Source: Moraxellaceae bacterium
GTDB lineage: Bacteria > Pseudomonadota > Gammaproteobacteria > Pseudomonadales > Moraxellaceae
Direction: 5' to 3'
Length of the DNA: 48,290 nt
Assembly (NCBI GenBank): GCA_030684415.1
Contig: JAUXNL010000009.1
Location: 1-48,290, forward strand
Each line of letters starts with the position of its first letter. Positions within the stretch are counted from its first letter, which is position 1. Below, piece after piece: positions 244 to 21,635 of this stretch. The notes under the pieces were generated by a model. That model made no database searches. It was not told where the DNA came from and saw only the letters and a program-made list of their open reading frames with translations. A program made the translations under genes and the position numbers.

Positions 244-1314
244 CTACACCCCAGACGCGGCCTGGCTCCTCGGACCTTCCCCAAATTCGAACGGGAGGGC
301 CAACAATTCATCGTGGATGGCCTGCCAGGGCTGGGTGAAGTCTAGAGCCCGCACGACCACCTCATGGCCGCGGATATTGTATCGGAGCGCTACCGTTCCT
401 CCGACGGCGGGATAGATGAGCGCGCCATCGCAGGGGAGATGGGGTGCGCGAAGGGCCGCATGCTCCAGGTACGCAAAGAGCTGATACAGGTGGCCTGAGC
501 GAACCTTCTCAGAGCCTACCCGCGAGGCCAAAACCTCTTTGTAGAACTTCGCGTCGATCACCACGGTGCGGGCCTTAGATCGCAGCGTTATGTCGGTTTC
601 CATAATCGGCAGGAAGCCGTGGCTGTCTGGCTCAAGCGGGAGGGCGTCCCAAGCCATCTGCTCGCGCGCCACTTTGAAAACGCTCTGCTCGTGGGCATAG
701 AAATTCCGCAGAAAGTCTTCAAAGATGGCCGACATAACCACCTCATTCTTGAGGATATCGGCGAACCGTGAGCCTGCGCCGCCCTCATCTGGCATGTGCG
801 CGTGAAAGGCTAACTCACATAGCTGCATCAGGGGGCGGTACTGGCCCGTATTCCGGGATAGCTGCACGCGGCGAAACAGCTCGGCGCCAAGGCGGATATC
901 GGCGATCCCGCCCATCCGCTGAACCAGGAGACCAAGCTCATGCTTTTGGGCCGGCTCAATTTCGCCGAGGCGCGGCATCGCCCTCGCTGTGGCCTTGATG
1001 ATTTGGTTGTGCAGCACGTCCGGCGTGAGCTCGTCAAACGCGCAAACGACGGCTCCTCGGCGAAGGGTTTGCCCTTTGACAATGTCGTCCAGCAGCAGGC
1101 GGCCGCGCGGGGATCGCGCCTCCTCGCTAAACGACTGGTACCCGCGGTCCAGACCTCGTCGCATGAGGCGGTTCGCACCACTGATCAGCAGGCGGGCCAA
1201 CAGGTTCGGGAGGTCCGGAGAGTCATCGACGCCAACGTCCACCGATCCACCCTCGGGGAACTTCCGCCAGGCGTAGCAGAATAGGTAATAGAGGTTGCGG
1301 ATTGGGATCGTCAT
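244..1314 (-). CDS. mcrC: McrC-like subunit of a 5-methylcytosine-dependent (type IV) restriction system
   Basis: N-terminus MTIPIRNLYYLFCYAW... is typical of McrC. The ATG at 1314 overlaps the mcrB stop (ATGA at 1311-1314), suggesting translational coupling. The gene lies directly downstream of the McrB GTPase gene. Confidence 0.85.
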   Translation of the reverse strand: MTIPIRNLYYLFCYAWRKFPEGGSVDVGVDDSPDLPNLLARLLISGANRLMRRGLDRGYQSFSEEARSPRGRLLLDDIVKGQTLRRGAVVCAFDELTPDVLHNQIIKATARAMPRLGEIEPAQKHELGLLVQRMGGIADIRLGAELFRRVQLSRNTGQYRPLMQLCELAFHAHMPDEGGAGSRFADILKNEVVMSAIFEDFLRNFYAHEQSVFKVAREQMAWDALPLEPDSHGFLPIMETDITLRSKARTVVIDAKFYKEVLASRVGSEKVRSGHLYQLFAYLEHAALRAPHLPCDGALIYPAVGGTVALRYNIRGHEVVVRALDFTQPWQAIHDELLALPFEFGEGPRSQAASGV

Positions 1315-3326
1315 GCGCGGCTTAGCAGCCGACCGCACCACTCTTCAGCTCGGTCGGGGGCGTCGAACCAGTACTCTTCCAAGAGCGGTCGGATTTCCGT
1401 CTCAACGATCCGCGAAAACCACCCTGGGGAGACCAGTCGCCCTTCGGTTGGCGTGAAAAAGCTGTGGCCGATCTGGAAGCCTGGGCCGAGGTTTATCTTG
1501 TCATCAGCAATGGCGGCATTGAGTTCGGTCATCCCCTCGATGACGCCCTGGGCCGTTTGCTGTGAGACCCCGCAGGCAAGCAAGAAGTCCCTGAAAGCAG
1601 GGTTGGAAAAGCCAGGCCGCAGAGCGACGAACGCGAACCGCCGGCGGAGGGCGTAGTCCACCAGCGACAGCGACCGGTCGGCCGTGTTCATCATCCCCAA
1701 AAGGGATACGTTTTTGGGCACGAAGAATGGTGCTGCATCCGCATCGGCGTACGCCAGGCGGGCCGCCCACTCTGATGAGCGCTTGTCATGCTCGATCAGC
1801 AGCATGAGCTCGCCGAAAACCTTGGATAGATTGCCGCGGTTTATCTCGTCGATGATGAAGACGTATGGCCGCTCTGCATCTAGCCGGGCCCGCTTGCAGA
1901 ACCGGTAGAAGATGCCGTCCTTCAGCTCGAAGCCGCCGTCCTTGGTCGGCCGGTAGCCCTGAATGAAGTCCTCGTATCCATAGGACTGGTGGAACTGAAC
2001 GACCTCCACCCGGGCGTCATCCTTTTGCCCCATGAGGGCGTAGGCGAGCCGCCGCGCGATGAAGGATTTCCCGACGCCCGGAGCGCCTTGAAGAACGAGA
2101 TTCTTCTTGTCCTGCCAGATCGAAAGGATGCGTTCGAACTCGGCGCGTTCAATGAACAGGCCATCCATGGCCTCATCGATCGTGTAGGGCGACATGGGTA
2201 CGGTCGCTTCGCTCTCGTCGGCGCCTTTGCCTGGCTGACTTTCGCCAAAGCGCTCCTGCCAGTACGGCTGAGTGAGAAACCAGTCGTAGTCCTGCGGAGC
2301 GTTGTCAAAGACAAAGGCGATCAACTGATCGGCGTACGCGCTCCCCGGCTGGACACGCCAGATCGTCTCCCTCTGCGTGAAGAAATACCATTCGCGGGAA
2401 ACGAATGAGGGGTCCCAGTCGACGGTGACTCTGATGCCGTCACCCGCATTGGCTACAATCGTCCCAGCGGCCTTGATCCGCATCACCGAAGCCGTGGCCC
2501 CCTCAGGATTTGGGAACGGCAGATTGTGCTTTCGGGTGTAGGTGGCCTTGATCGCGATCCGGTCGCCCGGCTTCATTTCCTTGACGGTTTCGAGCGTTGG
2601 CCCGTCATCCCAGCCGTTTTCCCACACCCCATCGCGGATGAACCGCTCGGCGGCATCCTCATCCTTTGGCATAGCGCCAACAAGCCAAACTGGGCGGACT
2701 TCGGATGCTGCAGCCAGGCGGTCATACGCCGTCAGCAAAGCCTCCAGGTCGCGGTTCAGCGCCTCGTCGCTGGGAACGGCAACAGCCGGGTATTCGACGT
2801 AGGCGATGGTGCCGGTTTCATAGTTTTTTGGCCGGCTGTGATCGACCTTTAGGTCAATATCATTGGCCAGGGTGAAGCCCGCGCCTTCGAGTTCCGAAGC
2901 ACTCTCCCGGTACTTCTGGGCTCGCTCCCGCATCGTATTTGCCGCGGCAGTCTGGCCAAGCTTGGCCACTAGCGCCGCTGAGCCCTGGTTGAGGGTTAGG
3001 TAGACTTTGGATAGGTCGCTGGCGACGAGGAGGACGGCATATAGCCCCTCCTGGGTGGTCGTTGTGACCTTGCGGTTCAGGAACGCGACCCAAGGAACTG
3101 TTGCCCAAACCCCCTTGCCTACACTCCATTCAACGACGATGTCTGGCCGCGCCTTCACGCAAGGTAGTGCGGCCAGACCGGCCTGGACGCGTCGGCCCAA
3201 GTCCCAAAGTACAGGGTCGGTCTTGAAGGGCGTTCGCCTCACCTGCCCAAACCGTTCGAGGAACTCCAAGAGTGACTGCTGGATCGGCGCTTTCTCAGCG
3301 CCTTCTTGACCGTCGTCCGCGCTCAC
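1311..3326 (-). CDS. mcrB: McrB-like GTPase with extended N-terminal DNA-reader region (MrcB_N/DUF3578-like plus a second uncharacterised domain)
   Basis: GTG start at 3326. N-terminal VEWSVGKGVWATVPWVAFLNRK...GLYAVLLVASDLSKVYLTLNQG matches the MrcB_N/DUF3578 pattern. AAA+ core: Walker A GAPGVGKS, Walker B/McrB signature FIIDEINRGNLSKVFGEL, and NTAD (NxxD GTP specificity) in GMMNTADRS. Confidence 0.9.
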   Translation of the reverse strand: MSADDGQEGAEKAPIQQSLLEFLERFGQVRRTPFKTDPVLWDLGRRVQAGLAALPCVKARPDIVVEWSVGKGVWATVPWVAFLNRKVTTTTQEGLYAVLLVASDLSKVYLTLNQGSAALVAKLGQTAAANTMRERAQKYRESASELEGAGFTLANDIDLKVDHSRPKNYETGTIAYVEYPAVAVPSDEALNRDLEALLTAYDRLAAASEVRPVWLVGAMPKDEDAAERFIRDGVWENGWDDGPTLETVKEMKPGDRIAIKATYTRKHNLPFPNPEGATASVMRIKAAGTIVANAGDGIRVTVDWDPSFVSREWYFFTQRETIWRVQPGSAYADQLIAFVFDNAPQDYDWFLTQPYWQERFGESQPGKGADESEATVPMSPYTIDEAMDGLFIERAEFERILSIWQDKKNLVLQGAPGVGKSFIARRLAYALMGQKDDARVEVVQFHQSYGYEDFIQGYRPTKDGGFELKDGIFYRFCKRARLDAERPYVFIIDEINRGNLSKVFGELMLLIEHDKRSSEWAARLAYADADAAPFFVPKNVSLLGMMNTADRSLSLVDYALRRRFAFVALRPGFSNPAFRDFLLACGVSQQTAQGVIEGMTELNAAIADDKINLGPGFQIGHSFFTPTEGRLVSPGWFSRIVETEIRPLLEEYWFDAPDRAEEWCGRLLSRA

Positions 3327-8355: not shown

Positions 8356-8896
8356 TGGTGCGCTATTGAACCTCATGTTTTTCAGGAATTGGTTAGTATG
8401 CCTTGCTCGCCTGCAGCTCTCAGCCACCCCGACAATTTGACTTGATGCTCAAGCCTCGAGCACCGGCAGAAATGTCGACGCCGACGACCCGGTTCATGCT
8501 GCTCAGGCGAATCGGACCCTCAGCGACGGCCGGCAGTGTGGATGGGCATCACGACCGGGCCGCCGGGCTAGAACACCCCCGTGCTGACCGCCGCTAAAGG
8601 CCCACCAGGCCCCTCGCCGCAGGTGCCGGCTACCCCAACCACCCCAGGCCATGCCCGCCCGCCCTGCGGCAAGCCTGGCGTTCCGGGGTCTGTTTTCGGG
8701 CGATGCGGGCATCGCGGGCCAAATCGAGCCTCCGGGGCGGCTCTCGACCGCTACCCAGCGTGTTGCATCAGACCCGCCAAGGGGGCACGAAACCAACGTC
8801 AGCAACAACCCGCAGCGAGCCGCTGTGGACGGCGCGCCGGTGGGGCGCCAACCTGACGAGCCAATCGCCCATCCGCCCGAGACCCGTTCCGCCCAC

Positions 8897-10042
8897 ATGC
8901 CTACGTTTTTCGAATTCTTTGCGGGCGGCGGGATGGCGCGGGCCGGCCTGGGCGAAGAGTGGACCTGTCTGTTCGCCAACGACTTCGACTCCCGCAAGGG
9001 TCAAACCTATGAGGCCAACTGGGGTAGCGGGGGCGAGCTCGCCATCGGCGATATCCGCCTGCTCAGCACCGGCCAAATGCCGGGCCACCCCGACTTGGTC
9101 TGGGGGTCCTTCCCCTGCCAGGACCTCTCACTGGCGGGTAACGGGGCCGGCCTGAAGGGCGAGCGGTCCGGCACCTTCTATCCCTTTTGGGGAATCGTCG
9201 AAGGCCTGATCCGCGAGGGCCGTGGTCCGCGCGTGGTCGCCGTCGAAAACGTGTGCGGCACCTTGACCTCGCACCAGGGCCGGGACTTTCAAGCCATCTG
9301 CCGGACCTTTGCTGAAGCCGGATACCGGTTCGGCGCGCTGGTGATCAACGCCGACCTCTTCGTTCCGCAGTCTAGGCCTCGCCTGTTCGTTATCGGCGTC
9401 CACGGCGACGTAGATATCCCGCCCGCACTCATGGCTGCTGGACCGACGGCACCTTTCCATACTTCGGCGCTTCGCAGGGCCGTGGAAGGCCTTCCAGGCG
9501 GCGTGCGCCGCGATCTGGTCTGGTGGTCGCTTCCAACCCCGGAGAAGCGCGCTGCGGCATTCGCCGACCTGATTGAAGACGATCCAGACAGCGTCTCCTG
9601 GCACACCCAGGCCGAGACCAAAAAGTTGCTCGACATGATGTCGCCGTTGAACCTAGCCAAGGTCGAGGAAGCGCGGCGGGAGGGGCGAAAGATCGTCGGC
9701 ACGGTCTACAAGCGGACACGGCCAGATGGAGCGAGGGGCAAGGCCCAGAGGGCCGAGGTGCGGTTCGATGATGTGGCGGGCTGTTTGCGCACGCCGGCCG
9801 GCGGATCAAGCCGTCAGGTGATCCTGGTGGTCGAGGGCAACCGCGTTCGCTCCCGGCTGATTTCCGCCCGAGAAACAGCGCGGCTGATGGGTCTGGCGGA
9901 CGACTACGTTCTGCCGGCCCGCTACAACGAGGCCTATCACCTTACTGGCGATGGGGTCGCCGTCCCGGTCGTCCGGCACCTCGCCCAGCACATCTTCGAG
10001 CCCCTCCTCGGCGCCGCTCAAGCCAAGCAGCAGGCTGCGTGA
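8897..10042 (+). CDS. dcm: DNA (cytosine-5)-methyltransferase
   Basis: Motif I FFEFFAGGGMA, motif IV GSFPCQDLSLAG, motif VI VAVENV, motif VIII QSRPRLFVIG, motif X-like GDGVAVPVV. ATG at 8897 immediately precedes motif I. The upstream in-frame extension to 8651 is Pro/Ala/Arg-rich and judged non-coding. Confidence 0.92.
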   Translation: MPTFFEFFAGGGMARAGLGEEWTCLFANDFDSRKGQTYEANWGSGGELAIGDIRLLSTGQMPGHPDLVWGSFPCQDLSLAGNGAGLKGERSGTFYPFWGIVEGLIREGRGPRVVAVENVCGTLTSHQGRDFQAICRTFAEAGYRFGALVINADLFVPQSRPRLFVIGVHGDVDIPPALMAAGPTAPFHTSALRRAVEGLPGGVRRDLVWWSLPTPEKRAAAFADLIEDDPDSVSWHTQAETKKLLDMMSPLNLAKVEEARREGRKIVGTVYKRTRPDGARGKAQRAEVRFDDVAGCLRTPAGGSSRQVILVVEGNRVRSRLISARETARLMGLADDYVLPARYNEAYHLTGDGVAVPVVRHLAQHIFEPLLGAAQAKQQAA

Positions 10043-10049
10043 GCCGACC

Positions 10050-10769
10050 GTGTCAGACCCAGCGAAACGACCAGACGACGTCAACGTCCCGCCCTTCGAG
10101 ACCGAAGACCTGCGCACCAATCTGGCGGCCTTCTTGGACAGCCTGGTTCAAGACCCGTCGGGCGAGACGGTGCGGGTCGGCAACTACCGCTGGGGCGTCT
10201 ACGCCTTCTTCGACTACGACGGCGAGCCGATTTATGTCGGCCAGACCAACGAGATGCTGCGAAGCCGCATCCGCCGACACCTGACCAATCAACGCACGGA
10301 CGCCGTGGCCATGTCGGTGCTGGACCCGTTCGAGGTCTACGAGATCGAGGTCTGGCCGCTGCCAGAGTTCCAGAACACCCCGGGCAAGGATGCGGACGCC
10401 AAGCACCATCTCGACGCTCTTGAGCGGCTGATCACGGACCAGTCGGTCGAGCGGTCGAAGTTCAAGGCGATCCTGAACGAGAAAGACCCTCCCCCCGGAA
10501 CGACCGCGGTGACGGCCCCCGCCTCGTGTCGGGGGCGGATTGTTTCGCCGCGCGTGTTCGAGCTGCGCTCTCACCCTGACTTCCGCATCGCCCGGCGCGC
10601 CTTGATCATCTCGCGGCTGGCCCAGGTCATTTCTGAGCGGAAGGTCCAGGGCGGCCTACGCCGGGTATTGCAGACCCAGGCGAAGCGGCTGCAGTGGCTC
10701 GCTGAGCGGCGATACGAGGCGCTAGGGGGCGCGGCTTCGGTCGCGGTTGAGCAGGACGGCGATGCTTAG
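10050..10769 (+). CDS. GIY-YIG domain nuclease, probable restriction endonuclease partner of the adjacent methyltransferase
   Basis: GTG at 10050 lies 8 nt after the dcm stop. Motif WGVYAFFDYDGEPIYVGQTNEMLRSRIRRHL is GIY-(~10)-YVG followed by a conserved Arg. Downstream acidic residues include FEVYEIEVW. Confidence 0.75.
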   Translation: MSDPAKRPDDVNVPPFETEDLRTNLAAFLDSLVQDPSGETVRVGNYRWGVYAFFDYDGEPIYVGQTNEMLRSRIRRHLTNQRTDAVAMSVLDPFEVYEIEVWPLPEFQNTPGKDADAKHHLDALERLITDQSVERSKFKAILNEKDPPPGTTAVTAPASCRGRIVSPRVFELRSHPDFRIARRALIISRLAQVISERKVQGGLRRVLQTQAKRLQWLAERRYEALGGAASVAVEQDGDA

Positions 10770-14527: not shown

Positions 14528-15256
14528 ATGTGCAACCTCTACCGCATGCGGACCGGAGCCGCCGACATCCTCGCCGCCAGCCGCGCCATGTCGGCCGACG
14601 TCGGCAATCTGGAGCCCCGCGACATCTATCCCGACTACGCCGCGCCGATCGTCCGCAACAGCGCCGAAGGGCGCGAACTGGTGCTGGCGCGCTGGGGCCT
14701 ACCCTCCTCGAGCCAGGCGCTGTTCAGCGCCGCAAGCAAGCGGGCCGACGGGCTTCGCAAGAAGGGCAAGGTGATCGACGACGACGCATTCAAGGACCTG
14801 CTGAAGATGGAGCCGGACCGCGGGACGACCAATGTGCGCAACACCGCCTCCCGTCACTGGCTCCGCTGGCTGGAGCCGGCCAATCGCTGCCTGGTCCCGC
14901 TCACCGCGTTCAGCGAGCCCGACCAGGTCGGCGGCTCCCTCAAGCCGGTCTGATTCGCCCTGGCGCAGGATCAGCCGCTCGCCTTTTTCGCCGGCGTCGA
15001 GGTCCGGGACTGGACCTGCGTCCGCAAGATCAGGGACGGCCTGGAGACCTGCAACCTGTTCGGCTTCCTGACCACCGACGCCAACGCCGAGGTTGCGGAG
15101 TTTCACAGCAAGGCGATGCCGGTGATCTTGTCCACCGAGGAGGAGCGAGATGTCTGGATGCGCGCGCCCTGGAGCGAGGCGAAAGCGCTGCAGCGGCCCT
15201 TGCCGGATGGGGTGCTCACAGTCTTGACCCCCGCCGGGCATGGCTTGGGAGGGTGA
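14528..15256 (+). pseudogene. SOS-response-associated peptidase (SRAP/YedK family) interrupted by one in-frame TGA
   Basis: Starts MCNLYRM (catalytic Cys2). The first part stops at TGA 14951-14953. The same frame continues without a shift as [15 protein letters not shown]...[37 protein letters not shown] to the stop at 15254-15256. Combined length is 242 codons. The TGA sits where SRAP proteins have the Trp of the conserved P(V/I)WFAL segment. Confidence 0.8.
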
Positions 15257-15493
15257 CGGCAGCTCTGCGGCAGAAGCTATCGTTAGAAACGCAGCGGCGA
15301 GGCGAGTCCGGTCCCGACTCATCGCCGACGTTCGGAAGCTCCGATCTGCGGAAGCGAGCCGAGGAAACCCGAAGAGGCTGTCCAAGTGTTCCCCGTTTGC
15401 GAGATCGGAAAAGGCCAGATTCCCTTTTGGATGGAAAGCCGTGTATCTCGGATCGCGTAGCGGATGCGGCCGGGGCCTCAGGGAGCAGGATAG

Positions 15494-16978
15494 TTGAAGC
15501 GAAGCATGGCGGCGCTGGTGATCGGCAATGGCGCCTACCCGGACGGTGACGATCTCGCTAACCCACTGAACGATGCGACGGACCTTGGAGCGAAGCTGAA
15601 CGGCTACGGCTTCGAGGTCATTGTGGCCCTCGACTGCACGGCCAAGGAGATGGAGAAGCAGCTCAAGGCCTTTCGGAAGTTGCTCGAAGCCCATGAGGTG
15701 GGGCTCTTCTTTTTCGCTGGCCACGGCATGCAGATCGAGGGGAGCAACTACCTACTCGCGCTCGATACCGACATGGACAGCGAGACCGACGCCAAACACA
15801 GCTCGCTGTCCCTCGACAAGGTTGTCGACGTGATGGCGAAGTCTCAAGCCTCAACGAAGATCATCATCCTCGACGCCTGCCGGAACAACCCGTGGGAACG
15901 AGCTTGGCATCGTGGGCCGGGCACTCGAGGCTTGGCCTCAGTCTACGCGCCGAAGGGCACGATCATCGGGTTCGCGACGTCGCCTGGCGAGGTGGCGTCG
16001 GACGGTACGGGCCGAAACGGAACCTACACCGAAGCCCTCCTGCAGCACATAGAGACGCGCGATTGCTCAATCGAGACGATGTTCAAACGGGTGCGGAACA
16101 CCGTTGCGGCGGCCACCAAGGGCAAGCAAACCTCTTGGGAGCACACATCGCTGTCGGGCGAATTCTACTTCAACATGAGCCTCGGCAACCTCATCGAGGA
16201 GTACGATGGCACGGCCTTGGCCGATAGCCTGTTCGTCATCGACCCGGCGAAGAAGTCGCACCAAGTCATCCAGGGACTCAAGACATACGACTGGTACCGG
16301 CAAAATCCCGCTGTCGGGCTCCTGGACGCCGCTGCGGTCAACAAGATGGCGAAGGACAACCTGTTCGTGGTCGGGCGCAACCTCTACCAAGCCGCCTGTG
16401 GGGCCTCGAATTCCGCCGCCTACTTCGTGGAAAACTTCATGACGGCGACCCATGGGTTCAACGCTGAGAAGCGGAAAGCCATCCTCGACGGCATGCTCTT
16501 CGAGGTCTTCTTCAACTCGAAGGGCGAGCTGAGAACCTCGATCAAGGGCAGGTACTTCGACACCACGTTCGACCTGCAGCGATATAGCCAGCTTCAGGAC
16601 AGCTTCGACTTCATCGCCGAGTCCCTGACTGCAGCCGGGGGGGACTTCTACGCCGTGCCGGGCAAGGGCCACGAGGTCGCCGTGACGGTCTCAACCAAAA
16701 AGGGCAAGGAAGGCGTTGTCGTCGAGGCGATCTATCTCGGCGGCGCGGACGTCTTACGGTCGAAAGCGGACGCCTGGGACTTCGTGGACGGCGCCAAGCG
16801 CCACAGTGAGATCGATCCGGAAACCCTGAACGAACGGCTCATCAAGGAGCTCGTCGTCCCCGCCCGGTCCCTGAAGATCACCTATACGCCTGGAGCGGCA
16901 GCAAACGAGGAGACACTTCTCATTCCGCGCGGCTGGACGGTCCGGAAGGGACAGCTCGACGATCTGATTTCCATCTAG
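15494..16978 (+). CDS. Caspase-like (peptidase C14) protease with an uncharacterised ~260-aa C-terminal domain
   Basis: His/Cys dyad in canonical context: LFFFAGHGMQ (His77) and KIIILDACRNNP (Cys129). TTG at 15494 is 8 nt after GGAG; an alternative ATG lies at 15506. The C-terminal half has no motif I can name. Confidence 0.85.
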   Translation: MKRSMAALVIGNGAYPDGDDLANPLNDATDLGAKLNGYGFEVIVALDCTAKEMEKQLKAFRKLLEAHEVGLFFFAGHGMQIEGSNYLLALDTDMDSETDAKHSSLSLDKVVDVMAKSQASTKIIILDACRNNPWERAWHRGPGTRGLASVYAPKGTIIGFATSPGEVASDGTGRNGTYTEALLQHIETRDCSIETMFKRVRNTVAAATKGKQTSWEHTSLSGEFYFNMSLGNLIEEYDGTALADSLFVIDPAKKSHQVIQGLKTYDWYRQNPAVGLLDAAAVNKMAKDNLFVVGRNLYQAACGASNSAAYFVENFMTATHGFNAEKRKAILDGMLFEVFFNSKGELRTSIKGRYFDTTFDLQRYSQLQDSFDFIAESLTAAGGDFYAVPGKGHEVAVTVSTKKGKEGVVVEAIYLGGADVLRSKADAWDFVDGAKRHSEIDPETLNERLIKELVVPARSLKITYTPGAAANEETLLIPRGWTVRKGQLDDLISI

Positions 16979-17162
16979 GCCTACCCAGGGGAGAGGATAT
17001 GCCGACGTGATCACAGCCCGCAATGAGGTTGTGCCGCCTGATGTCCCCGCCTTGCGCGAGTCGTCCGGAGGCAGATCGTGGAGTGGCAATGGGGTGGCTA
17101 CCGAAGCAGTGGCGCTGGTGGGCCGAATGAGTATCCTGCCATGCGCATCATGGGGCTGAACG

Positions 17163-19679
17163 TTGGCGACCTCCCAAGAATTGATCCTCCGCCTCAGCGA
17201 CATTCGGACCACCGCGGGCAATGAGGCCGATGTCCGCTTCAAAGTCATCGACGATGTCCTCACTCATCTTCTTGGATGGGAGAAAACCGACTTCGAGCAT
17301 GAGGAACGGGTGTCGGAGGACGGGAAGGACTTCTTCCTCGACTATCTCATCACCACTGCACAGACCTCACTTCTTGTGGAGGCGAAGCGTCTCCAGATCG
17401 ATTTCTCCCGAGTGCCAACAGGCCGCGCTCCGCTCAAGGGCTCCTGGCTGAAGGGCGACCTTAAGAAAGCGGTCAACCAAGCGCGAGACTATGGCCGTAA
17501 ACGAGGGGTGGGCTTTTGCGCGGTCACCAACGGTGACGCGTGGATCATCTTCCCGATCAACCGGCGGGATCTGGTTAGTTTTGAGGATACCTATGCAATC
17601 GCGTTCTCAGACGCCGGGATCGCGCTTGAGACTGATTTCGATGACTTTAAGTCGCTGCTTTCCCGGGAAGCTGTAATCGACGGCAGCCTCGAACAAGCCC
17701 TGCTCGGAGGCGACAGCAATCAAACGGACAACCGGCGCCTCAATCGAATCTATGATAGCTCCTTCTCGAAAATCAATCGGACCACGATGTTCTCCTCAAT
17801 CGAGGATGAGATCGTCACGGCCTTTGCAGAGGAGCTGGTGGCGAAGAACCCCGAGCTTCTCCAAAAGGCGTATGTAGAAACCGCTGACCGCATCAAGTTC
17901 GATGAGCGGGTCAAGATGGCCGTGCTACGCCGGGAGCAGGTAATCAACACGCGCCCCATGCGGCCTGTGGGGCGCACCGGCGTAACTCCCGCAGCAGCAA
18001 GGGTCATCAGTACCCAAGTAAAAAATCAATCTGTCGCCCTACTGACCCTGGGGCTTGTCGGTGCGGGAAAGACAACGTTCCTGAACTACGTCGCCAACGT
18101 CAGCGGCAACAGATATTTCGATCAAGAGAAACCGAAACCAAGTGCGCACTGGCTCTATATCGATTTTCGATCCTACTCGAAATCGGTAAGCCCTCGGGAC
18201 TTCATCTACGAGGCTCTGTTTGAGTACATCGGAGATAACCCCACGCTGGGTGATTACGAGAAGACAATCAAAAATGCCTATGAGGGCGAAATCGCCGCGC
18301 TTACTCGCGGGCCTCTCGCCGTGATGAAGGGAAATCAGCAAGCGATTGATGCCAAGATTGCTGAGCTGCTCCTGAAGGAATACGAGGAGAAGGTGCCCTA
18401 TGTGCGCCGTATCCTCTCCCATGCATCGAAAACTACGCCGCTCTTCCTGGTTATCGACAACGTCGACCAGATTGAAGAAGGCAGCATCCAAGAGGGCATT
18501 TTCCTTGAGGCGATTGCTGTTGCGAGGGAGGGTGGCCTCAACCTCGTGCTTGCCATGCGGGACGCCACCTACGTCAAGAACCGTTCGTCCGCTGTCTTCG
18601 ACGCCTTCACCTTCGACGCGATCTACATTGATCCGCCTCACATTCAGTCGGTGCTGTCGAAACGCTTTGCGATTGCTGAGCATCTCCTCAGAGGAAAGTC
18701 GTTCGACCTCGTAACTGACGGGGGGGCGAAGGTTACGATTACAGACGCTTCGCGGGTTGTGCAGATGCTCAGCGCTAGCGTTTTGGGCACTGAAGTCGGA
18801 AATTTGATCGAGGTGTCAGCGACCGGGGACGTCCGCCTTGCGTTGCAGATGACGAAACAGTTTCTCCAGTTTGGATATTCCACTTCTTACCGGGCGTTCC
18901 AGGCGTTCGAGCGCACCGGCACCTATCGCTTCCCGATCCATGAGGCCGTGAGGGCAATCATGTTCGGCAACCAATCGATCTATCGGGACGAGTTCTCGCC
19001 CTTCCTCAACCCCTTTGACGCGAAGACCGGGCGGTCAGAAAGCCAGTTCCTCCGCCTTTACATCATGAGCGCATTGGTTAGTGCCGCTTCGACGAAGACC
19101 TTTCAGGGCTTGGAGGCTGGAGAGATTGTCTCGAGCCTTGAAAAAATGGGGTTCAGCCAACGGATCACCAATAAAGTGATTGCCGACCTAATCGCGGGGC
19201 GGTTGTGCTTCTCGCGTTCTCACCAAGAATACACTTTGGAGAGTGTTCTGGTCCCCAGTCGCCTGTGCGGTTACATCGTTCGCGACCTGATTGGAAAGAT
19301 GATATTCCTAGAGAACGCCCTATTCGATACGTTCATTTATGATGATATCGTCTGGGATTCGATCAAGAAAAAGATGAAGACTGTGTATAGAGATACCAAT
19401 CCGGTATCAAAGTTCAAATTGCGTAAAGAGATTGCTTCCTTGTTTTTTGACTGGGTGGAGCAAGAAGCGCAGAAGCTTTGCGTTGAAGCGGCAAAGCGGA
19501 ACTTGGGCCCATTCTGGACAAGCAACCCGATTTCGCGCCTCCGCGTTGATTTCAACGCCGAGCTTGAGAGAGCTCTTCGTTCGGCGGTTGCGAACTACGG
19601 TACGGATCGGGAGAAGGAACTTATGGGGCTGCCGCTGTTCCGTGACCCACATTATACGGCGAAGCGGGCTGGCAAGTGA
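17163..19679 (+). CDS. HsdR_N/Mrr-like restriction-endonuclease-fold domain fused to a P-loop (STAND/AAA-like) NTPase with an unknown C-terminal region
   Basis: N-terminus: FFLDYLITTAQTSLLVEAKR (D...E-x-K) then FCAVTNGDAWIIF, the pattern of type I HsdR N-terminal nuclease domains. Walker A LGLVGAGKTTF (Lys302). Walker B PLFLVIDNVDQ (aa 426-436). LVLAMRD sensor-like strand. TTG start; no upstream in-frame ATG. Confidence 0.8.
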   Translation: MATSQELILRLSDIRTTAGNEADVRFKVIDDVLTHLLGWEKTDFEHEERVSEDGKDFFLDYLITTAQTSLLVEAKRLQIDFSRVPTGRAPLKGSWLKGDLKKAVNQARDYGRKRGVGFCAVTNGDAWIIFPINRRDLVSFEDTYAIAFSDAGIALETDFDDFKSLLSREAVIDGSLEQALLGGDSNQTDNRRLNRIYDSSFSKINRTTMFSSIEDEIVTAFAEELVAKNPELLQKAYVETADRIKFDERVKMAVLRREQVINTRPMRPVGRTGVTPAAARVISTQVKNQSVALLTLGLVGAGKTTFLNYVANVSGNRYFDQEKPKPSAHWLYIDFRSYSKSVSPRDFIYEALFEYIGDNPTLGDYEKTIKNAYEGEIAALTRGPLAVMKGNQQAIDAKIAELLLKEYEEKVPYVRRILSHASKTTPLFLVIDNVDQIEEGSIQEGIFLEAIAVAREGGLNLVLAMRDATYVKNRSSAVFDAFTFDAIYIDPPHIQSVLSKRFAIAEHLLRGKSFDLVTDGGAKVTITDASRVVQMLSASVLGTEVGNLIEVSATGDVRLALQMTKQFLQFGYSTSYRAFQAFERTGTYRFPIHEAVRAIMFGNQSIYRDEFSPFLNPFDAKTGRSESQFLRLYIMSALVSAASTKTFQGLEAGEIVSSLEKMGFSQRITNKVIADLIAGRLCFSRSHQEYTLESVLVPSRLCGYIVRDLIGKMIFLENALFDTFIYDDIVWDSIKKKMKTVYRDTNPVSKFKLRKEIASLFFDWVEQEAQKLCVEAAKRNLGPFWTSNPISRLRVDFNAELERALRSAVANYGTDREKELMGLPLFRDPHYTAKRAGK

Positions 19680-21404
19680 CCCCATGACCGCAGCGACAGC
19701 AAAGACCGCAGCCTAAGTACAGGATTTTGCTTCAGGGGGGGTGCCCGGCTCCGAACGTAGGCGGCTGCAGTAGCCCTTCTGCTAAGCTCGGAAAAGCTGC
19801 TAGCCGCCAAGTCACGAAAGTCCGCTTCTGATGCCGTGGACGGCTCCCCATCACTCGCCGCAGCATAGGGCTCGGCAAAGATGGAGGTGCGCCATGGAAG
19901 GAGTGGTCACGGTGGGATTGGACATCGCCAAGTCGGTGTTTCAGGTCCACGGAGTCGATGCGGCCGGACAAGTGGTCGTGCAGCGCAAGCTTACGCGAGC
20001 GAAGCTGATCCCGTTCTTCGAGAAGCTGCCGCCTTGCCTGGTAGGGATCGAAGCCTGCGCCACGGCGCATCACTGGGGGCGTCGGCTAACCGAGCTGGGC
20101 CACCAGGTGAAGCTGATGCCGCCCTCGTACGTGAAGCCGTACCTGAAGCGGCAGAAGAACGACGCGGCCGATGCGGAGGCGATCTGTGAGGCCGTGACCC
20201 GGCCGACCATGCGCTTTGTCGAGGTGAAGGGCCCCGAGCAGCAGAGCGTTCTTGTGATCCATCGGACCCGGATGACCTTGATGCGACACAGGATCGAGCT
20301 GTCCAACACGATCAGGGCGCATATGGCCGAGTTTGGTCTGGTGGCGCCGATCGGTCGGATCGGGCTGCAGGGCCTGGTCGGGATCATCCGCGACGCGGCC
20401 GACGAGCGTGTGCCGGAGCACGCCAGGATCTGCCTGAAGCTGCTGGCCGACCAACTGGATCTGGTCAACCGCCAGGCGCTCGAGACCGACCGGCTAATCC
20501 TGGCGAGCGCTCGCGCGACTGAAGTTGGCCGCCGGCTGATGGCCGTACCCGGCGTCGGACCGGTGTTGGCCAGCGCGATGGTCGCCAGCGTGCCCGATCC
20601 TCATGCCTTCCGATCTGGCCGCAACCTTTCGGCCTGGATCGGCCTCGTACCTAAACAGAACTCGAGCGGCGGTAAGGAGCGGCTCGGCGGCATCACCAAA
20701 CAGGGCAACAGATACCTGCGCCAGTTGCTTGTTGTCGGCGCGCTCGCCGTCATCCGCTACGCCGAACGACACGGGTCGAGGCGACCCTGGCTCGTGCAGC
20801 TGATGGCGCGGCGAACCACGAAGGTCGCGGCGGTGGCGCTCGCCAACAAGACCGCCCGGATGATGTGGGCCATCATGACCAGCGGCCAGGCTTATCGAGA
20901 GCCGGAGTTGCGGACCGCGTAGAAAGATCCGGCGCCGCTGCGCCGGCCAGGTTTGGGAAGGGCGACGAAGGAGTGATGTGATCCGGTCGAACCGGGAAGC
21001 GGGAAAACCCAGCGCGCCAGAGGGCCTTGAGCCCGTGCTTTTGGTCGGGACCCAGCTTCGCGGAGGGCATCATGGCCAGCGGCCCATGCGCCGCACCAAC
21101 AGGTCGAAGACATGGCCGCACCGACCAGCTGTCACAGAACTCTCAGATCAACCTTGCCAACGGGGAGCCGTCCAGACATGGCGCACAGTGGCTTGCCTTG
21201 ATCACCTCGAAGGCAGCTACCCAGAGGGAAACGGCATTCTGCCAGACTTGGTGAGACCGCCCGATTGTAGAGGGCCGAATTGCCGAGCGGAGGGAATAAC
21301 CCCCGGCGGGGCCACCAGGCCACTTTGCCGGAGCGGCCTTCATCAGATGGGCTGGAATGTCACCACCGGCCAGGGCGTTATATTGTTGAATTTATTGAAG
21401 AAGG
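19680..21404 (+). mobile_element. IS110/IS1111-family insertion sequence (ends not defined)
   Basis: A DEDD-type transposase gene is flanked by 214 nt (5') and about 480 nt (3') of non-coding DNA. This family lacks conspicuous terminal inverted repeats, so the ends cannot be set by eye. Confidence 0.6.
19894..20922 (+). CDS. IS110-family transposase (closest in pattern to the IS1111 subgroup)
   Basis: MEGVVTVGLDIAKSVFQVHGVD... (DEDD N-terminal domain). LVGIEACATAHHW. KRQKNDAADAEAICEAVTRPTMRFV. C-terminal Transposase_20-like PGVGPVLASAMVA...LVPKQNSSGGKERLGGITKQGNRYLR. Confidence 0.92.
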   Translation: MEGVVTVGLDIAKSVFQVHGVDAAGQVVVQRKLTRAKLIPFFEKLPPCLVGIEACATAHHWGRRLTELGHQVKLMPPSYVKPYLKRQKNDAADAEAICEAVTRPTMRFVEVKGPEQQSVLVIHRTRMTLMRHRIELSNTIRAHMAEFGLVAPIGRIGLQGLVGIIRDAADERVPEHARICLKLLADQLDLVNRQALETDRLILASARATEVGRRLMAVPGVGPVLASAMVASVPDPHAFRSGRNLSAWIGLVPKQNSSGGKERLGGITKQGNRYLRQLLVVGALAVIRYAERHGSRRPWLVQLMARRTTKVAAVALANKTARMMWAIMTSGQAYREPELRTA

Positions 21405-21480
21405 TGGTGCCGCTTAGGTGACTCGAACACCTGACCCCATCATTACGAATGATGTGCTCTACCAGCTGAGCTAAAGCGGC
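21405..21480 (-). tRNA. tRNA-Thr (anticodon CGU), intact with encoded CCA
   Basis: The reverse complement folds as a perfect cloverleaf: GCCGCTT TA GCTC AGCTGGT AGAGC A CATCA TTCGTAA TGATG GGGTC AGGTG TTCGAGT CACCT AAGCGGC ACCA. Confidence 0.93.
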
Positions 21481-21560: not shown

Positions 21561-21604
21561 CGCTAATTACGAATGCGGTGCTCTACCGGCTGAGCTAAAG
21601 CGGC
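21561..21604 (-). pseudogene. 5' half-copy of tRNA-Thr(CGU): acceptor 5' strand, D-arm, anticodon stem 5' strand and loop only
   Basis: The reverse complement GCCGCTTTAGCTCAGCCGGTAGAGCACCGCATTCGTAATTAGCGG matches the intact gene through the anticodon loop with 3 substitutions. Homology then ends: there is no T-arm and no 3' acceptor strand. Confidence 0.75.
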
Positions 21605-21635
21605 CCTTTGTGAGAAGGCGTCCCGGAAGGGAGGC

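Follow-up and report, generated by a model that had tools for sequence, protein, structure and literature searches.

The DNA analysed here (the window) is a stretch of 48,290 nucleotides from Moraxellaceae bacterium (GenBank assembly GCA_030684415.1, contig JAUXNL010000009.1, positions 1 to 48,290 of the forward strand). It carries two adjacent genes, one for a caspase-family protease (gene 1) and one for a nuclease-NTPase fusion (gene 2), which an initial annotation made from the sequence alone had presented as a candidate two-gene defence module. The coding sequence of gene 1 (15494-16978, + strand, TTG start) encodes 494 amino acids (aa), comprising the protease and a conserved C-terminal module. 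That of gene 2 (17163-19679, + strand, TTG start) encodes the 838 aa fusion protein. The genes are co-directional and separated by a spacer of 184 nt, and a check of the open reading frames (ORFs) agreed with the annotation in lengths, strand and spacing. The sequence motifs quoted there were also recovered by script at the residue numbers given, except that the Walker A lysine of gene 2 is K303 and not K302. The GC content was 0.607 for gene 1 and 0.545 for gene 2, with values at third codon positions (GC3) of 0.822 and 0.673, respectively. With hundreds to thousands of full-length homologues each, both are real, intact genes.

Association of gene 1 and gene 2

The association of the genes was examined at 81 loci with gene 2 homologues (22-86% identical, from many phyla, 6-8 kb of flanks each) and 91 loci with gene 1 homologues (41-93% identical). 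Sampled loci are designated by L and a number. No caspase was found with tblastn near the gene 2 homologues (0/81 loci), whether gene 1 was used whole or as N- and C-terminal halves, and no gene 2 homologue was found near the gene 1 homologues (0/91 loci). The three closest relatives of gene 2 (86-93% identical) also had no caspase beside them (0/3). Clustering of all flanking ORFs at the 81 loci gave no recurrent neighbour of any kind around the gene 2 family. The same clustering gave no recurrent partner of the gene 1 family, the sole clusters being those of near-identical contigs.

At the DNA level, the two genes lie in separate blocks of similarity. The gene 1 cassette (15316-17049, + strand) was 89% identical to L082 and L083, the loci of the closest gene 1 relatives, over exactly that span, which includes 178 bp upstream and 71 bp downstream of the gene, and the similarity ended at 17049. 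The gene 2 cassette (17105-19668, + strand) shared 80.6% DNA identity with L180 (93% protein identity) over that span only; a further 262 nt upstream of the gene 2 homologue in L180 were unrelated to the window and contained no caspase. Because the first block ends at 17049 and the second begins at 17105, the cassettes are joined within 17050-17104, a junction common to neither set of relatives. A conserved module of caspase and nuclease-NTPase is not supported: adjacency, which the initial annotation had itself made a test of its proposal, was conserved at none of the loci, and the homology blocks and the GC3 values (0.82 vs 0.67) of the two genes differ.

The closest relatives occupied different settings. 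In L082 (1-12271), and likewise in L083, the 93% identical gene 1 homologue was flanked on one side by a VirB/Trb type IV secretion block and on the other by a Lamassu-like operon with LmuA (with CTD7), MC3 and LmuB_C. In that element, the caspase cassette thus has another defence system as its neighbour. The 86% identical gene 2 homologues in L181 (2187-8382) and L182 were the sole cargo of a mini-island consisting of a DUF6538-type integrase, a helix-turn-helix (HTH) protein, a resolvase and the nuclease-NTPase gene, adjoining an OprB porin gene.

We consider it very unlikely that the genes cooperate in this genome as a newly assembled module, in which the nuclease would be released or activated through caspase cleavage of a disordered linker in gene 2 (aa 250-289), or the protease would be activated by gene 2 on sensing infection. 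The null pairing counts (0/81, 0/91 and 0/3) speak against such cooperation, as do the separate DNA histories and compositions, the solitary occurrence of each family, be it as the only cargo or as a moron, and the absence of a detectable shared adaptor domain (Pfam, PADLOC and NCBIfam). What it has in its favour is the co-directional arrangement 184 nt apart, the low confidence of the linker in the structural model and the existence of caspase-NTPase pairings in other immune systems; Apaf-1-like STANDs (signal transduction ATPases with numerous domains) with caspase domains are also mentioned in the literature. RNA folding and terminator scans found no terminator-like fold in the spacer. Read-through transcription is therefore possible, and nothing else links the two genes; promoter and terminator scans with RNA folding of the spacer gave no signal for or against linkage.

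It is likely, in our assessment, that gene 1 and gene 2 are two independently acquired single-gene cassettes that lie adjacent in island cargo, gene 2 being a self-contained nuclease-NTPase immune protein and gene 1 an unrelated one-protein unit. The separately acquired cassettes would have ended up next to each other in the cargo region of a lower-GC island beside tRNA-Thr, which also holds McrBC, a Dcm methylase and an integrase/primase core. Had it been real, the pairing of a caspase with a nuclease-NTPase would have strikingly paralleled the apoptosome; the evidence points to an accident of defence-island packing and cautions against inferring operons from adjacency alone.

The island setting described by the initial annotation was confirmed, including its character as a defence island. 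Upstream of gene 1 is an SRAP pseudogene (14528-15250, + strand), whose frame is broken by an in-frame stop at 14951-14953 and continues beyond it. In Hyphomicrobium (L002), the gene 2 homologue had an intact SRAP gene directly upstream, and one gene 1 homologue also adjoined an SRAP gene. Downstream of gene 2 is an IS110-family transposase gene (19831-20922, + strand; Pfam DEDD_Tnp_IS110 and Transposase_20). The right-hand edge of the lower-GC island coincides with tRNA-Thr(CGU) (21405-21480, - strand; ARAGORN and Rfam), where the GC content steps from ~0.62 on the left to ~0.70 on the right. The 5' half of this tRNA gene (40 nt) is duplicated at 21566-21605, 124 nt away, with 93% identity; a repeat search found no att-like repeat of its 3' end elsewhere in 1-22000. 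Further upstream, the island contains the integrase, a primase-helicase, McrBC and the Dcm methylase. McrC (244-1341) and McrB (1311-3326, MrcB_N and AAA_5), both on the - strand, make up a type IV restriction system immediately beyond the integrase, where the lower-GC region has its left end. A C5 cytosine methyltransferase gene (8651-10042, + strand) overlaps an ORF with a GIY-YIG domain (9951-10769), and the two may form a methylase-nuclease pair in the same island.

Gene 1 and its C-terminal module

The N-terminal part of gene 1 is a Peptidase C14 (p20-type) domain (aa 6-225; 15509-16168, + strand), with a Pfam PF00656 match of E = 5e-40 and a score of 138 bits against a cut-off of 21.4. 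The motifs FFFAGHG (72-78) and IIILDACRNNP (123-133) contain the dyad residues His77 and Cys129, both invariant in 45 gene 1 sequences. MALT1 was matched in sequence (3e-12) and was the top fold match in Foldseek (1.7e-11, 24% identity). The sequence search of solved structures, run with full-length queries and with domain-only profiles of the C-terminal regions of both genes, returned nothing beyond MALT1 for gene 1, and Foldseek against the viral library returned giant-virus caspases only. Gene 1 had 4195 homologues; those among the 120 matches listed were ~485 aa long and 63-93% identical, with 97-99% query coverage.

The C-terminal module (aa 236-494; 16199-16975, + strand) was modelled by AlphaFold2 with a predicted local distance difference test (pLDDT) score of ~80-95, as a helical part (~239-385) followed by a variable beta-rich tail (386-486). 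In line with the initial annotation, which could name no motif in this half, the region is unassigned: no match was found in Pfam, PADLOC, the Protein Data Bank (PDB; by sequence, domain-only profile and Foldseek) or the viral fold library, and no PADLOC-DB v2.0 model covers it. Searched alone against 1.84 billion representative proteins, the C-terminal half retrieved 536 clusters in three groups, namely gene 1-like proteins of ~485 aa, shorter forms, and forms of 628-665 aa in which an N-terminal PIN_8 nuclease (E 1e-25 to 1e-33) replaces the caspase before a gene 1-type module. The PIN-fused relatives had no PADLOC matches, and a literature search for PIN_8/PF18476 yielded plant PIN8 papers only. 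Across the caspase-fused, PIN-fused and short forms, 15 residues were invariant (D244, W267, Q270, F291, G294, R295, N296, Q299, A301, G303, L331, G333, E337, R347 and K351 in gene 1 numbering), and the tail varied. The module is marked by the motifs W267xxQ, FxxGRNxxQxAxG and LxGxxxE and by R347 and K351. Gene 1 consists of a MALT1-like C14 protease and a conserved C-terminal module; in other proteins this module is fused to a PIN_8 nuclease instead. Conflict systems typically exchange toxic effectors on a common module.

The gene 1 family is associated with defence islands and mobile elements. Among the nearest neighbours of the gene 1 homologues (n=81), ~10-13 were defence proteins (SIR2, ThsB, Ppl, mad3, type II restriction endonuclease (REase), GajB, LmuA and PDC candidates), and integrases, resolvases and transposases were also present. 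PIN-fused members followed a type I restriction-modification (R-M) operon or were near ImmA/IrrE-HTH pairs and insertion sequence (IS) elements. In L175 (1844-7944), a PIN_8 protein with the gene 1-type C-terminal module was encoded directly 3' of HsdR (type I restriction) and DUF4357 genes. One gene 1 cluster found on >100 contigs (P0174; L085-L090 and L099) was located in an integrative and conjugative element (ICE) beside TraG and MmeI/Eco57I-type R-M genes. In this cluster, the gene 1 homologue was always followed by an unannotated co-directional gene of 460-467 aa that is not similar to gene 2. No gasdermin, CHAT/SAVED, EACC1 or STAND partner was detected near gene 1 homologues by flanking-ORF clustering and neighbour annotation.

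A somewhat unlikely alternative is that gene 1, though often found on mobile elements, has no immune role and is an alphaproteobacterial orthocaspase with regulatory or housekeeping duties. Such a role would fit the great abundance and high conservation of the family in Rhizobiales, Sphingomonadales and others, the frequency of prokaryotic caspase homologues in Alphaproteobacteria noted in the literature, the homologues (L084 and L091) that stood alone among metabolic and translation genes, and the mean identity of 81% in the protease domain. The exchange of caspase and PIN_8 effectors on the same C-terminal module argues against it, together with the share of defence proteins, integrases and transposases among the nearest neighbours, the cluster inside an ICE beside MmeI-type R-M genes, and a GC content below that of the host.

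In the favoured reading of gene 1 as an immune protein, its C-terminal module would be the regulatory or sensing part, restraining the protease until a ligand or trigger is bound and then freeing the toxic effector; the PIN nuclease of the PIN-fused relatives would be governed by this module as well. More tentatively, and with some doubt, the module (aa 236-486) could define an undescribed family of one-protein immune sensors with interchangeable toxic heads (caspase or PIN_8), in which a conserved polar pocket binds a small molecule or infection-derived ligand that unleashes the effector, gene 2 separately representing a short-sensor nuclease-STAND/ORC (origin recognition complex) family. The caspase/PIN family with this undescribed module is a more novel lead than gene 2. 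It is a plausible new single-protein defence family, built from a caspase or PIN nuclease on a conserved module, and offers a tractable route to the control of bacterial caspase homologues.

Gene 2 and its family

The three parts assigned to gene 2 by the initial annotation, an HsdR_N-type nuclease, a P-loop NTPase and a helical C-terminus, were supported by invariant motifs, by Pfam matches within the family and by an AlphaFold2 model. Gene 2 alone gave only sub-threshold Pfam matches to AAA_22, AAA_16 and HSDR_N_2. Over 20 family members, AAA_16 was matched in 18/20, HSDR_N_2 in 10/20 (best 4e-5) and HSDR_N in 6/20, with weak matches to nSTAND5 (7/20), NACHT (4/20) and also KAP models. The model, built from 61 sequences (pLDDT 82.9, predicted template modelling score 0.76), consisted of an alpha/beta domain (1-150), a helical stretch, a low-confidence disordered linker (250-289), a P-loop domain with lid (290-575) and a C-terminal region.

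The N-terminal domain (aa 1-150; 17163-17612, + strand) is a PD-(D/E)xK nuclease domain of HsdR-N/RecB type, as judged from residue invariance, Pfam family matches and the order of strands and helices in the model, which is compatible with the alpha-beta-beta-beta-alpha-beta core of this fold. The motifs FLDY (58-61, with D60), LLVEAKR (70-76, with E73 and K75) and AVTNGDAWIIF (120-130) lie in this domain. E47, D60, E73, K75 and Q106 were invariant in 61/61 sequences and Y110 was conserved in 60/61. D...ExK together with QxxxY (Q106xxxY110) is the HsdR/RecB nuclease signature, and the active site is intact.

The P-loop NTPase (aa 290-575; 18030-18887, + strand) is of ORC/Cdc6-STAND type, as indicated by motif invariance, Foldseek and similarity to a seed protein of a STAND survey (see below). 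It contains GLVGAGKTT (297-305, with the Walker A lysine K303), LFLVIDNVDQ (427-436) and LVLAMRD (461-467). Walker A (G297..K303-T-T), Walker B (D432-N-x-D435-Q), R466 and R558 were invariant in 61/61 sequences. R466 is the sensor-1 residue after the LVLAM strand, and R558 lies within GDxRLAL, a classic AAA+ sensor-2 motif. With Walker A and B, sensor-1, sensor-2 and a winged-helix-like unit after the lid, gene 2 has the features of an ORC/Cdc6-type AAA+ protein. In Foldseek the best match was Cdc6/Orc1 (1.2e-6), followed by TnsC, CED-4, NRC4, RdrA, Apaf-1 and BrxC, with low TM-scores since the query is multidomain. Because of these matches, the modelled NTPase is placed in the ORC/Cdc6-STAND continuum. 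A grouping with STAND clades is favoured by the survey seed, by the weak nSTAND5 and NACHT matches and by the CED-4, Apaf-1 and NRC4 folds, and the sensor-2 arginine speaks against it.

The C-terminal region (aa 576-838; 18888-19676, + strand) was modelled as helices with a winged-helix-like unit (~651-700) and a helical end (701-827), mostly with pLDDT >85, and is a putative sensor or DNA-binding part. It was slightly more variable than the remainder of the protein (identity 0.43-0.49 vs 0.52-0.60). A domain-only profile search found no PDB match for this region, no Pfam match to NCH1 or tetratricopeptide repeats (TPR) was obtained for gene 2 and the 20 family members, and no repeat family was matched in the ~260-330 aa after the NTPase.

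By analogy with bNACHT25/32, bNACHT11 and Avs, the C-terminal winged-helix/helical region would detect an infection cue. NTP-dependent ring assembly of the ORC/STAND module would then cluster the N-terminal nuclease domains and turn on DNA degradation, so that the phage is stopped and the cell probably killed. The logic of effector, NTPase switch and C-terminal sensor proposed by the initial annotation for gene 2 is supported, by analogy, by the design of bNACHT25/32, which are validated defences, and by the use of a family member as a seed in the STAND survey.

The main rival for gene 2, which we regard as unlikely, is that the protein is no protein-sensing STAND receptor but a restriction enzyme that depends on NTP and recognizes DNA itself. 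Its ORC/Cdc6-like AAA+ domain, together with the winged helix, would be loaded onto DNA that is foreign or modified, for cleavage by the HsdR-type nuclease, in the manner of a type IV enzyme or of McrBC in one chain. The best folds are those of the DNA-loading proteins Cdc6/Orc1 and TnsC, the sensor-2 motif GDxRLAL carries an invariant R558, a winged-helix-like unit follows the lid, and the C-terminus is only mildly variable. Furthermore, one record labels a gene 2 homologue 'Predicted type IV restriction endonuclease', and ORC-type ATPases with REase domains recur in DNA-targeting conflict systems. The Walker B (hhhhDNVDQ) and sensor-1 (..MRD) regions, however, are STAND-like in sequence, the family has weak matches to nSTAND5, NACHT and KAP models and was taken as a seed in the STAND survey, and no partner methylase is conserved nearby.

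Homologues of gene 2 numbered 291, mostly full length (~830 aa), and ranged over many phyla, from Alphaproteobacteria to Enterobacteriaceae, Pseudomonas, Acidobacteriota and beyond. They were present on 23 plasmids, 14/23 of them conjugative, and in 8/5426 complete E. coli genomes. In E. coli 789 (NZ_CP010315.1; L173, 8947-11397), the homologue WP_040091717.1 was located in a Rac-like prophage, as a lone opposite-strand gene between replication genes (DUF977/ydaUV) and the Nin region (DUF1367/1364/1133), which is a typical moron position. Resolvases and integrases recurred among the nearest neighbours of the family (n=83), together with ~6-9 PADLOC defence proteins (HerA, Shedu, MzaA, PtuB and mad). 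Flanking-ORF clustering and neighbour annotation gave no recurring methylase or specificity genes. A Kef-type Na+/H+ exchanger gene adjoined the gene 2 homologue in 8/81 loci (L004, L009, L013, L014, L032, L044, L047 and L061), on either side and either strand; its neighbourhood may be an insertion hot spot in Alphaproteobacteria.

It is extremely unlikely that gene 2 works for its mobile element and not for host defence, for example as a nuclease-bearing ATPase of the replication-initiator-like or transposition-target kind. Such a role would agree with the fold likeness to Cdc6/Orc1 and TnsC and with the frequent resolvases, integrases and IS elements nearby. It does not agree with the many unrelated carriers (ICE, IncF plasmids, a lambdoid prophage and mini-islands, and also sites beside housekeeping genes), with the lack of a conserved partner transposase or origin-like repeats, or with the opposite-strand moron position in the prophage.

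Several points weigh against the preferred reading of gene 1 and gene 2 as independently acquired single-gene defence cassettes. The two genes may be co-transcribed in this genome, with no terminator between them. The conservation of the gene 1 protease domain is unusual and atypical of fast-evolving immune genes, and solitary gene 1 homologues occur among housekeeping genes. The C-terminus of gene 2, judged by its sequence identity, is not hypervariable, unlike SNaCT-type sensors. The counts of defence neighbours are small for both families and without a matched control, and we infer the defence role of both from architecture and neighbourhood.

Comparison with known systems

In keeping with the initial annotation, which did not recognise the pair as a named system, PADLOC, Pfam and NCBIfam assigned neither protein to one; in PADLOC, gene 1 had only a 'caspase' match to its protease part (8e-10). 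The gene 1 protease domain was also weakly similar to the NCBIfam EACC1-associated caspase (4e-18). Membership of that family (NF047832) was rejected, with 65.6 bits against a cut-off of 140. Like MALT1 paracaspase and prokaryotic orthocaspases (Peptidase C14), the N-terminus of gene 1 has a p20 fold and a His/Cys dyad. Unlike them, gene 1 lacks partner domains of the death, Ig or p10 type, and its C-terminal half is shared with PIN_8 proteins.

For gene 2, no model of PADLOC-DB v2.0 matched, with weak partial matches only to mad8 (5e-5) and DrmMI (4e-4). Literature searches by accession (WP_040091717, WP_047062017 and OWF11469) returned no papers, those on HSDR_N/AAA_16 single-gene defences returned nothing relevant, and no name or experiment was found in the literature for the family. 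Gene 2 as HsdR of a type I restriction system was rejected, with no ResIII, DEAD or helicase match and no recurring methylase or specificity genes. LypABC (CARD-NLR-like) of Caulobacter, considered because the closest gene 2 relative comes from that genus, was set aside since it uses serine peptidases with CARD domains.

A survey of prokaryotic STAND NTPases drew on 656 seed proteins, namely earlier predicted defence STANDs and BLAST hits that had Mrr- or Cap4-type effectors; its seed 111 corresponds to aa 271-547 of E. coli OWF11469.1, and sensors <400 aa were left out of sensor clustering and testing (Lee et al. 2026, bioRxiv 10.64898/2026.01.04.697583). OWF11469.1 was 100% identical to the Rac-prophage protein WP_040091717.1, and gene 2 was 40% identical to this seed over aa 289-547 (E=4e-70). 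The sensor of gene 2 is shorter than this inclusion length. The gene 2 family is a catalogued predicted defence STAND that was apparently never tested. It is widespread, its members ranging from those of Alphaproteobacteria to those on Enterobacteriaceae plasmids and in an E. coli prophage, and its sensor is too short for the recent sensor survey.

The closest characterised design is that of bNACHT25 and bNACHT32 (bacterial NLR-related proteins of clade 6; WP_001702659.1), which combine a PD-(D/E)xK DNase, NACHT and the helical domain NCH1; the nuclease is needed for defence and sensing occurs via DnaJ. In bNACHT25, defence depends on the nuclease residue D48, and infection leads to degradation of DNA. 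Like gene 2, they are single polypeptides of ~750-840 aa on plasmids and mobile elements, with an N-terminal PD-(D/E)xK DNase, a STAND-type NTPase in the middle and, at the C-terminus, a short helical domain without repeats. In contrast, their nuclease is Mrr_cat, whereas that of gene 2 is of HsdR-N/RecB type with QxxxY, and their NTPase is NACHT, whereas that of gene 2 is AAA_16/ORC-like with a sensor-2 arginine. Gene 2 differs further in its ~140 aa linker between nuclease and NTPase. A plasmid homologue of bNACHT25 matched Pfam Mrr_cat, NACHT and NCH1 (6.5e-37), confirming its domain layout; none of these was found by Pfam in gene 2 and its E. coli homologue, and hhalign aligned gene 2 with bNACHT25/32 in the P-loop region only (probability 33-44%). 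Membership of gene 2 in the bNACHT25/32 family was ruled out by the Pfam signatures and hhalign.

Avs proteins (e.g. Avs4 with an Mrr-like nuclease) resemble gene 2 in the order of effector, NTPase and sensor, in the nuclease effector, in single-gene defence and in their location in defence islands. PADLOC Avs models did not match gene 2. As the initial annotation had remarked, gene 2 is much shorter than typical Avs: ~260-330 aa of winged helix and helices follow its NTPase, whereas Avs sensors are long, usually TPR-like repeats, of at least 400 aa in the survey. A precedent for a short-sensor STAND such as gene 2 is bNACHT11 (clade 14), whose C-terminal SNaCT domain (~160 aa) senses phage proteins and drives heptameric ring assembly. 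It has an N-terminal effector of 45 residues and no nuclease, its SNaCT domain is fast-evolving whereas the C-terminus of gene 2 is fairly conserved, and no sequence match to gene 2 was found.

The best structural matches of gene 2 were ORC/Cdc6 initiators and their conflict derivatives (TnsC, BrxC, SspC and CR-effectors with REase), with which it shares the sensor-2 motif GDxRxAL and a lid followed by a winged helix. Combinations of an ORC-like NTPase with REase are recurrent in DNA-targeting conflict systems. No HerA, PglZ or Ssp partner genes were found near the gene 2 family by flanking-ORF clustering and neighbour annotation, and the REase is C-terminal in CR-effectors whereas the nuclease of gene 2 is N-terminal. 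Overall, gene 2 is a new member of a catalogued nuclease-NTPase family; its design is known, and its ATPase stands between those of ORC and STAND type.

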